From Escherichia coli O157:H7 (GTDB taxonomy: Bacteria; Pseudomonadota; Gammaproteobacteria; Enterobacterales; Enterobacteriaceae), in the NCBI RefSeq assembly GCF_013167455.1, contig NZ_CP038328.1: DNA of 64,000 bases; one strand, 5' to 3'. The position numbers were made by a program. The stretch's first letter is position 1. Each line of letters starts with the position of its first letter. Of the stretch, positions 3,001 to 6,000 are shown one piece after another.

Positions 3001-6000
3001 TTTTAACAGTATTTACCTGTAAAATTGAATAATGATGAGCGCCCTAGAAGTATCTATGTACAGAATCAGCAAGCTTCTTCAGGAAACTGGATGGAGCCAG
3101 GCTGAGCTTGCCCGTAGAATTGGTGTGACACAACAAACTGTTCAACAATGGGTCAGCGGTAAGGCTACACCTAAAGCCTCAAGTTTGGATAAACTGGTTG
3201 AGGTTTCAGGGCATCCATTGCATTGGTTTTTATTGCCTCCTGAAGAGTGTGAGCAAATTTTCACCCCTGACACGATGAAAATTGGTCCTCGCCAACGCGA
3301 ACTGCTCCAAGCTTTTAGTGCGTTTCCTGAGGAAGACCAAGAAAAAATGCTTCAAGAAATCAAAGACAAGAAAAAATCAATGGAAGAAACCATTGCTAGG
3401 TGGCTGGCGGCACAAAAAAGCCGCCGGGCGTGACCACAGTACAAGAAGAGGAGTTATGCCATGGGTACAGCCCTTTCTCCGATAGTTTCAGAATTCGAAA
3501 CTACCGAACAAGAAAACAGTTACAACGAATGGTTGCGCACTAAAGTAACGTCAAGCCTTGCAGACACTCGCCCCGCAATTCCACATGACGAGGTAATGGC
3601 TGAAATGGAAAATCTTATTGCTCAAATTGCTGTAACTAACAAGAGCGAGTAATGTTACCCATTTTATGGCTACCGTCTGCTCGCGATGATTTGCGCCAGA
3701 TCATAACTTACATCGCCAAGGAGAACCCACCGGCAGCACGTAGACTAAAAATACGCATTGAAACATCGGTATTACCTCTATCTGAGCATCCGTACTTATA
3801 TCCACCAAGCGAACGGGTTTCTGGATTGAGAGAGATCGTGACCCACCCTAACTACATAATCCTGTACAGAGTAGCTGCTTCAAGCATTGAGATTGTAAGC
3901 GTGACACATTCTCGGCGACAATTTCCCTTCTCTATCTGAGTTGAACAATTTTCATACTCCCTCTTTCGAGGGATTTTTTTGCCCAAAACAACAATTAAAA
4001 ACTGTTGACACAAAAACAGTTTTTAATTGTAGATTACATACACCAACCACCCACCCCGCCCCACAGAACGCCGGGCAATACTTCGAGTTACCAAGCAGTG
4101 GTCAGGGGGTAAGTAGCCAGCCCGAGGCGTATGAACATGACGGCAGGGTTCAACTTTAATAACTATGCAGCAGGTTTTTGTTCCGCTACCCGGCGTTAAG
4201 GGGAAATGAGGTCAACATGGATACTATCGATCTTGGCAACAACGAATCTCTGGTGTACGGCGTGTTTCCCAACCAGGACGGTACATTCACCGCGATGACG
4301 TATACCAAAAGCAAAACGTTTAAAACCGAAAATGGTGCCCGTCGCTGGCTGGAAAGAAACTCAGGTGAGTGATATGGATTTCGACACAATCATGGAAAAG
4401 GCTTACGAAGAATACTTCGAAGGCCTTGCCGAAGGCGAGGAAGCTCTCAGCTTCAGTGAGTTTAAACAGGCGCTTTCCAGTTCGGCAAAATCTAACGACT
4501 AACGGAGTTAAAGATGGAATTTAAAGATTTACTAAAAGAAATCCAGGAAATTGCAGCACATGCACTTCACCAACGTCTGAACGAAGTTGAATTAGAATCT
4601 GCAACGAAGAAATACATTGATAATATGGCTCGTAATGTGCGCGATGCGTTTACCGGATTGTACTCTGTTTCGGTAACAAACAACCAGAATACTGAAGAAA
4701 CTGCAAAGCGGATTGCCTCGGTGATGGGTTTTCATGTCGAGGAAAAGTATTCAAAAAAAGAATTCTGGAAAACTACAAAAAAATTGCAGAGCGAGAACTG
4801 TCATCTCCTGCGGCAATCGCTTCTTTCTATGAGGAAAGTTATTCAGATGACACAGGATTACCGGAACTGCTCTCATTACTTGAAAAATTCGGAATTATCA
4901 TGAAAGGGACTGCGTCGGCGGATTTCACATACTCAATGATGGCTGCTGATGGAGAGCCTTTTCCTCCCGAACTTAAAATAACCCCCGGCAATCATCCGAT
5001 GGTAACAATAAGAGCAATAGAGAATTACTGGTTTAATCCAGTTCAACAATAGTTGGTCTTTGCAATATTTTTAATGGGCCACTACGCCCTTAATCTCGGG
5101 CGGCGTTTAACTCTTTATTCAGTAAATCAGACTGATACTGATTTGGCTTTGTAATGATACTGTCAAGTTTTGATATATGAAATTCAACATGTTCTGGACA
5201 GTTAAAAATGTAATAACCGCCCTTCTCTAAAAAGCCAGAAAGAGCGTTACAGGCAGGGCATGGTTTGTTTGGCATTTTATCCTCCATTAAGGGCTGAATT
5301 AAAAATGGAGACCAACACGCTGCTACGTGTGGTCGTGCGCCGGACACAGATAAGAATCCGGCACTGACAGTTTACTGAAAGGATATATCCCTGAAAAGTC
5401 AGGGCATAACACGAAAGTGCACGGCGAAGTCCTTCTCCCTTAGAGCCGTCGTTAAATTTAATTCGACCGTGCGCTTCCGGTTGTGGCAATCCGCGAAATG
5501 GCGCGGCGGTAAGTATGGCGGGGTTATTCTTTCCCCGTTGAGGACACCGGGTTGTCAGGTTGACCATACGCTTAAGTGACAACCCCGCTGCAACGCCCTC
5601 TGTTATCAATATTCTGGTGACATTTGGCGGTATCAGTTTTACTCCGTAACTGCTCTGCCGCCCTTTTTTAAAAGTGAATTTTGTGATGCGGTGAATGCGG
5701 CTCAGCGCACGCGGAACAGTTAAATCGGTAAAGCGGTCATTTGCTGAGTAACGAGAATGCTCTGTATCCGGCGTTAATTGTTAACTGGTTAACGTCACCT
5801 GGAGGCACCAGGCACCGCATCACAAAATTCATTGTTGAGGACGCGATAATGGAAAAGTTATCATGTAATGCCAGCACGTCTGAACTTCGTTTCGAAATTG
5901 GCGTTATCACTGGAGACAAAACATTTATTGAAGACGCCATTAAGCAGAGAAAACTCGAGCAGGACCTGTTAAATGAAGTATGCATTCCTTCAATGCTGGC

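Follow-up and report, generated by a model that had tools for sequence, protein, structure and literature searches.

The closest described relative of the locus considered here is paaR2-paaA2-parE2, a three-component toxin-antitoxin (TA) operon of the Escherichia coli O157:H7 prophage CP-933P (Hallez et al., 2010; Jurenas, 2021, PMC8630535), for which structures have been solved (3ZBE, 5CW7 and 5CZE). In this system the antitoxin PaaA2 is degraded by ClpAP and ClpXP, the toxin ParE2 is found together with the nucleoid and triggers the SOS response, and the regulator PaaR2, in which the autocleavage motif is missing, shows no response to mitomycin C; the locus, described as "addictive", stabilises an unstable plasmid and contains a bistable CI/Cro-like switch (PMC8630535). 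A paralogous system, paaR1-paaA1-parE1, also goes back to Hallez et al. (2010) and is cited here through PMC8630535, PMC4803016 and PMC3141249, the name paaR1-paaA1 being in use in the last of these. This report describes a three-gene module at positions 3032-3939 of a 64,000-nucleotide stretch of the O157:H7 contig NZ_CP038328.1 (assembly GCF_013167455.1); this whole stretch is referred to as the window. The analysis itself shows the gene identities, the synteny, the repeated operators and the mosaic pattern relative to CP-933P; for toxicity, specific neutralisation, addiction and bistability it relies on published work on the paralogue, or on reviews that deal with the present system.

The segment is very probably the immunity region of the cryptic lambdoid prophage Sp4/CP-933M of O157:H7, with the known operon paaR1-paaA1-parE1 inside it. 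A 1.6-kb region including the TA pair is 100% identical to many O157:H7 chromosomes, and in this identical DNA RefSeq annotates the same three coding sequences (CDSs; 3032-3433, 3461-3652 and 3652-3939). In strain F6667 the region lies within a lambdoid prophage whose integrase adjoins yccA; within the window, the end of the integrase gene falls at about 10097, a 3' fragment of tRNA-Ser occupies approximately 10250-10300 and yccA starts at 10506. The same bounds, yccA and tRNA-Ser, have been reported for prophage Sp4 of strain Sakai (PMC8190617), and Sp4 is equivalent to CP-933M (PMC2884950). According to the mBio 2021 study, which cites Hallez et al. (2010), CP-933M carries a homologue of paaR2-paaA2-parE2 (PMC8630535). 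A query with paaA-parE found exactly two places in O157 genomes. Because the prophage ends are those of Sp4/CP-933M, the paralogue has been placed there and the pair occurs at two places, the window copy is taken to be paaR1-paaA1-parE1; this link is indirect and is judged strong. The original prediction had matched the module to paaR2-paaA2-parE2, which is right as to the arrangement, but the CP-933M/Sp4 paralogue is the more precise identification.

The tRNA-Ser fragment (…GGTTCCAGAGTTCGAATCTCTGCGCTTCCGCCA) between the integrase gene and yccA represents the attachment-site core and marks the end of the prophage; ARAGORN detected no complete tRNA in the whole 64-kb window.

The three-gene cassette is therefore already described, as a sister copy of the well-studied paaR2-paaA2-parE2. 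Among 5426 complete E. coli genomes, 508 contain the segment specific for this immunity type at a query coverage of at least 80%, and the full 1.6-kb region with the TA pair reaches the same threshold in the same number of genomes (508), so that this immunity type appears always to travel with the TA cassette. The paaA-parE pair is at least 99% identical in 436 complete-genome records.

The three open reading frames (ORFs) are co-directional on the plus strand and encode proteins of 133 aa (3032-3433), 63 aa (3461-3652) and 95 aa (3652-3939). The stop codon of paaA1 (TAA, 3650-3652) and the start codon of parE1 (ATG, 3652-3654) overlap by 1 nt and read TAATG. A gap of 27 nt, which contains a GAGGAG Shine-Dalgarno sequence, separates the regulator and antitoxin genes; translational coupling, which had been proposed for the whole set, is thus limited to the antitoxin/toxin pair. 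The genes form an operon-like unit with a single terminator 3' of parE1. This intrinsic-terminator-like hairpin (TCCCTC-TTTC-GAGGGA followed by T7; 3958..3980, plus strand), identified by a terminator scan 19 nt past the parE stop, has its stem in the minimum-energy fold (-10 kcal/mol, z=-2.3) and looks like the operon terminator.

The family assignments of the two small proteins, for which a search with hidden Markov models had been suggested, proved correct. PaaA1, an antitoxin devoid of a DNA-binding domain, has Pfam PaaA2 (PF21217, E=7e-19) as its only significant domain, matches NCBIfam NF050103 with 92 bits (cut-off 50) and the PDB structure of PaaA2 (3zbe) with E=1e-20, sharing 62% identity with PaaA2. 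ParE1 matches Pfam ParE_toxin over the full length of the model (E=3e-17) and is 67% identical to the crystallised O157 ParE2 (PDB 5cw7_B, E=3e-36). As summarised in PMC4803016 on the basis of Hallez et al. (2010), in both O157 paralogous pairs the ParE protein is reported to be toxic and to be neutralised specifically by its cognate PaaA, and the same review reports no cross-neutralisation between the CP-933P and CP-933M antitoxins.

The regulator encoded by paaR1 is a predicted CI-like/DicA-like repressor composed of an N-terminal 434-type helix-turn-helix (HTH) and a C-terminal PaaR-type domain. In Pfam it matches HTH families only (HTH_3 at residues 13-58), in agreement with the XRE-type repressor lacking a peptidase domain that had been predicted; the C-terminal S24 peptidase domain by which lambda CI-type (LexA-like) repressors undergo RecA-stimulated autocleavage is absent. 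Its best NCBIfam match is the DicA subfamily NF007257, at 51.5 bits and under the cut-off of 101 bits. The last 46 residues are identical to those of PaaR2 at 30 of 46 positions, whereas the N-terminal part is unrelated. The best PDB matches are the N-terminal domains of the 434 repressor, with Gln34, Gln35 and Gln39 of PaaR1 aligned to Gln28, Gln29 and Gln33 of that protein. Co-crystal work on 434 repressor established that these three glutamines read the ACAA half-site.

Divergently oriented to paaR1, the gene at the ydaS position (2651..2923, minus strand) encodes a 90-aa Cro analogue (PHROG 35, E=9e-29) of an immunity type unlike that of CP-933P YdaS, with which it has 23% identity; a comparison with solved structures gave no significant match, the best being an unnamed "Cro protein" (3bd1, E=0.15). 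PaaR1 and the Cro analogue, which are otherwise unrelated, have in common the recognition helix GV(A/T)QQTVxQW (15 of 28 residues identical, E=4e-8). A helix held in common is what classically marks a repressor and a Cro protein that contend for the same operators, and since it is present in both proteins the Cro analogue probably competes with PaaR1 for the same sites.

Two related inverted repeats flank the module. The first (I4), at 2957-2971/2981-2995, is perfect and has 15-nt arms; the second (I1) is found at 3986-4006/4015-4035, and the repeats I2 and I3 connect the two. The original prediction considered them copies of one operator palindrome. Both repeats are real and flanking, but the gap at their centres is not equal, being 1 bp longer in one of them (CTGT-N9-ACAG vs CTGT-N10-ACAG). 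A 27-nt pattern of invariable spacing consequently picked up the first unit only, and this rigid palindrome model was dropped in favour of one of 15-bp sites. The arms are in turn pseudo-palindromes of 15 bp, ACARTN5AYTGT, with the half-sites ACAAT and ACAGT. This motif has four exact matches in the 64-kb window, all of which are these arms, against an expectation of 0.24, and none of 100 shuffled sequences reached four.

At the right operator (OR) there are three sites, centred at 2964, 2988 and 3013 and thus 24 and 25 bp apart: OR-a (ACAATAAAAAACTGT, 2957..2971) and OR-b (ACAGTTTTTTATTGT, 2981..2995), exact matches that form the left and right arms of I4, and OR-c (ACAGTATTTACCTGT, 3006..3020), which has one mismatch and adjoins the -10 element of the candidate PRM promoter. 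The left operator (OL) comprises two exact matches 25 bp apart, OL-a (ACAATTAAAAACTGT, 3991..4005, centred at 3998) and OL-b (ACAGTTTTTAATTGT, 4016..4030, centred at 4023). The lambda pattern of related operators at a divergent PR/PRM pair and at a distant PL is therefore found here, with three sites at 2957-3020 and two at 3991-4030. The motif ACARTN5AYTGT is absent from the CP-933P-type locus, and the CP-933P operators are repeats of the GTTTAGTAA type (PMC8630535). PaaR1, having an HTH and a PaaR-type C-terminal domain, probably binds the 15-bp sites, which as candidate operators overlap the promoters.

Candidate promoters can be placed around these sites. PR, read from the sequence on the minus strand (2952..2981), consists of a -35 TTGATT (2981->2976), an 18-nt spacer and a -10 TAGGCT (2957->2952) located 28 nt from the ydaS ATG. 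PL (4005..4035, plus strand) consists of a -35 TTGACA (4005-4010), a 19-nt spacer and a -10 TAGATT (4030-4035), and would drive ydfA-ydfB-…-dicF-dicB; the interval between its -10 and the conserved ACCAACC… leader equals that of its counterpart in the CP-933P-type locus. The PR unit aligns base for base with the PL unit: the OR unit on the minus strand and the OL unit on the plus strand have 37 invariant columns, including TTGA (-35) and TAG (-10) outside the repeats. The two units are inverted, outward-facing copies of one promoter-operator unit, as would fit PR and PL. Experiments on CP-933P have shown a parallel situation (PMC8630535).

The candidate PRM has its -10 element TAAAAT at 3020..3025 (plus strand), 6 nt before the paaR1 ATG at 3032, which implies a leaderless mRNA; no Shine-Dalgarno sequence occurs upstream of 3032. 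The geometry is that of GATAAT + 6 nt + ATG upstream of paaR2 in the CP-933P-type locus, and the paaR2 transcript is leaderless according to 5'RACE and N-terminal sequencing (PMC8630535).

The conserved leader of approximately 175 nt between PL and ydfA (4042-4216) was folded, considered as a put/nut-like RNA and rejected, as it is not more stable than shuffled sequences (z=+0.70) and no Rfam family matches there.

The CII analogue of the switch is encoded by a ydaT-like gene (2242..2667, minus strand; 141 aa), assigned to PHROG 163, "CII-like transcriptional activator" (E=4e-46), and named "toxin YdaT family protein" in RefSeq. A probable OM-like YdaT operator (TTGATTTTCATGAATCAA, 2657..2674) extends across the end of ydaS and the start of ydaT, and the window has no other exact copy of the YdaT site as published, 5'-TTGATTN6AATCAA-3'; both the motif and its OM position in CP-933P, which the placement at 2657-2674 matches, are described in PMC9986795.

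Altogether the gene order is lambda-like: replication genes, ydaT and the cro analogue point to the left, followed to the right by paaR1, paaA1, parE1, the terminator, PL, ydfA, ydfB, DicF, dicB, an exonuclease gene and the integrase gene. The module thus lies between the cro/cII analogues and a PL-like promoter, in the cI-rex slot where it had been placed by the original prediction.

A mechanism can be proposed on these grounds. PaaR1, a CI-like protein with no RecA-cleavable domain, would act on the three OR and two OL sites and silence PR, which serves ydaS/ydaT and after them the replication genes, as well as PL, which serves ydfABC-dicF-dicB…. Its gene would be transcribed from the PRM-like promoter together with paaA1 and parE1, probably as a leaderless message. 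YdaT, for its part, would have a separate conserved target where ydaS and ydaT meet. If the paralogue is taken as a guide, PaaA1 would bind ParE1 directly and so neutralise it, and loss of the region would leave free ParE1 that kills or arrests the cell. Since loss of the region would free the toxin, the immunity region would be addictive and the prophage stabilised, a role that had also been suggested by the original prediction and for which the support comes only from the paralogue (PMC8630535).

Comparison with CP-933P-type loci reveals a mosaic. The segment 2242-2678, with ydaT, has 88% DNA identity (YdaT, 86% at the protein level). No DNA similarity is detectable at 2679-3367, which comprises the cro analogue, OR and the N-terminal domain of the repressor. 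At 3368-3930 (the PaaR C-terminus, paaA and parE) similarity resumes at 67-71%, and from 4046, downstream of PL, the DNA is 95% identical. The two loci have the same three-gene order between ydaS/ydaT and a PL-like promoter and the same YdaT site motif, and they differ in the DNA-binding domain of the regulator, the cro analogue and all of the operators, as well as in the paaA/parE junction, which reads TAATG in the window and TAAAATG in the CP-933P-type locus. The pattern is that of a classic heteroimmune "imm" swap around a conserved but diverged TA cassette. Because their operators, cro analogues and repressor N-terminal domains are unrelated, the two O157 switches are probably heteroimmune.

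A further reading joins two propositions: that PaaR1 and its Cro analogue form a 434-like, five-operator bistable switch heteroimmune to that of CP-933P, and that the cassette may in addition fire in a Rex-like manner when a heteroimmune lambdoid phage superinfects or recombines. As a whole this combination is improbable. Under the first proposition, a single O157 cell would contain a pair of mutually independent CI/Cro-type switches, both kept in place by a ParE addiction cassette of their own that does not cross-react with the other. The switch part would represent a modest extension of the published work on the paralogue, and only the exclusion part would be new. The operator grammar (15-bp sites, three in OR and two in OL) and the shared 434-like helix may exceed what the accessible literature contains, and they make the heteroimmunity of the two O157 switches testable.

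Several side observations concern paaR2-type loci. The CP-933P-type locus in AP026101.1 contains an IS3-family element (HTH_Tnp_1 and rve ORFs; locus positions 3981-5194) between ydaS and paaR2 that splits OR, and a second IS3-family copy interrupts the exonuclease gene. Phage Evi (LR597642.1) was examined as a carrier of the window-type module and rejected, as its module is of the paaR2 type, with a regulator and PaaA annotated; at 3463-4046 it encodes a 123-aa regulator and a 63-aa ORF with the sizes, order and slot of paaR2-paaA2. No toxin CDS is annotated 3' of PaaA in this phage, yet the DNA is approximately 70% similar to the window across that stretch, and the toxin gene may simply be unannotated.

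The role of the TA pair could be conceived differently, mainly as an anti-phage device for exclusion or abortive infection that replaces RexAB and is triggered by superinfecting phage rather than as an addiction module. The position of the cassette in the cI-rexA-rexB slot would suit such a role, paaA2/parE2 are said to "replace rexA and rexB" (PMC9986795), and TA systems are generally tied to phage defence. However, neither PaaA1 nor ParE1 has any sequence relationship to RexA or RexB, no family among the PADLOC defence models was matched by either protein (the regulator matches through generic HTH similarity only), and the mBio 2021 paper on the paralogue, in which the words "abortive" and "exclusion" do not occur, shows plasmid stabilisation and addiction (PMC8630535). 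The exclusion of superinfecting phage, which the original prediction had offered as a second role, finds no support in the PADLOC search or in the paralogue literature, and as the main function it is unlikely. Whether the module does anything at all may also be asked, as CP-933M/Sp4 is regarded as defective, only CP-933W makes particles (PMC8630535) and the switch of the CP-933P-type locus in AP026101.1 is split by the element mentioned above. A decaying prophage could retain intact ORFs that are neither expressed nor functional; here, however, the three intact ORFs are accompanied by operators, a terminator and a YdaT site that are likewise intact, the near identity of paaA-parE across the 436 records argues against decay, and specific toxin neutralisation is attributed to both paralogous pairs in reviews of Hallez et al. 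(2010; PMC4803016). An inert remnant is accordingly very unlikely.

The toxin itself might be a RelE-type, ribosome-dependent mRNA interferase instead of a ParE-type protein acting on DNA topology. Its sole NCBIfam match is TIGR02385 RelE_StbE, just over the cut-off (28.4 vs 27.9 bits), the antitoxin is assigned by RefSeq to the RelB family, and ParE2 is reported neither to bind GyrA59 nor to inhibit gyrase (PMC10886550). Against this, the 95-aa protein gives no detectable alignment with K-12 RelE, its four PDB matches are all ParE-labelled proteins, the Pfam ParE_toxin model is covered in full, and the 67%-identical ParE2 localises to the nucleoid and induces SOS (PMC8630535), all of which makes a RelE-type activity extremely improbable. 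The preferred interpretation is still that of a ParE-family toxin in a presumably addictive immunity region, paaR1-paaA1-parE1 of CP-933M/Sp4.

Some points count against this interpretation. The equation with paaR1-paaA1-parE1 is based on the identity of the prophage and the count of two paralogues. When sequence clusters were consulted for these exact proteins, only generic database names came back, none of them with a ParE1 or PaaA1 label, the RefSeq names being "helix-turn-helix domain-containing protein", "RelB family antitoxin" and "RelE/ParE family toxin" (WP_000986592.1, WP_000536233.1 and WP_001303876.1). The start of the regulator is ambiguous, some records annotating a 125-aa form from 3056; position 3032 is favoured because it gives the -10 + 6 nt + ATG geometry of the leaderless paaR2. 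PR, PRM and PL all went uncalled in a scan for the sigma-70 consensus, and the proposed promoters have long spacers (18 and 19 nt) and weak -10 elements; since the scan called none, their assignment follows positional analogy only. We infer the placement of PR, PRM and PL, the leaderless start of paaR1, the occupancy of the operators and heteroimmunity. Finally, gyrase, which ParE toxins of the RK2 / Vibrio type poison, is an uncertain target for the ParE1/ParE2 branch, with a negative result for gyrase inhibition by ParE2 and a positive one for SOS induction. For annotation, the locus is to be read, beyond the generic RefSeq labels, as paaR1-paaA1-parE1 within a CI/Cro/CII-like switch.

The genes around the switch are those of a lambdoid prophage. 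Downstream of the candidate PL are the DicF small RNA (5612-5663, plus strand; Rfam RF00039, 76.9 bits) and dicB (5849-6037, plus strand; NCBIfam CellDivInhibDicB, E=2e-36). By analogy with DicA in Qin, PaaR1 probably also keeps these cell-division inhibitors silent. On the other side of the switch, the ORF at 410-1612 (minus strand) encodes a replication-initiator/helicase-loader-like protein (PHROG 1701, E=1e-148) with a low-complexity QEQEQEQEKEQEQ linker, annotated by RefSeq in a shorter form as "hypothetical". Two long ORFs overlap on opposite strands: 1544-2035 (plus), an "ECs1072 family phage-associated protein" in NCBIfam (105.7 bits, cut-off 70) present in the RefSeq annotation, and 1719-2279 (minus), which matches PHROG 8304 (E=6e-120) and has no RefSeq annotation; probably just one of them is a real gene. 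The PyrD leader at 37150-37223 (minus strand; Rfam RF02373, 97.9 bits) belongs to the chromosomal part of the window and is unrelated to the module.

Beyond the CP-933P paralogue, the locus combines traits of several classical switches. As in lambda and 434, three operators at intervals of some 24-25 bp accompany divergent PRM and PR promoters, and a further group of operators is found at PL, roughly 1 kb distant; as in lambda, the repressor gene precedes two accessory genes that the lysogen expresses. The glutamines in the PaaR1 HTH and half-sites beginning with ACA(A/G), compared to ACAA, bring it close to 434, while the site length is 15 bp in the window as against 14 bp in 434 and 17 bp in lambda. 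It departs from lambda in that PaaR1 has neither an S24 peptidase nor a RecA-cleavage domain, a TA pair dissimilar to RexAB fills the accessory positions and the CII analogue is the POU-like YdaT. In Qin of K-12 the order dicC, dicA, ydfABC, dicF, dicB parallels that of the window (cro-like gene, DicA-like repressor, ydfA, ydfB, DicF, dicB), positions 4180-4500 are 97% identical to the Qin ydfA/ydfB DNA, and the alignment of PaaR1 to DicA extends across 111 residues and takes in the C-terminal motif LELL..F.A.PE..Q. Qin differs in having no TA pair between dicA and ydfA and operators unlike those of the window, and PaaR1 stays below the score that defines the DicA subfamily.

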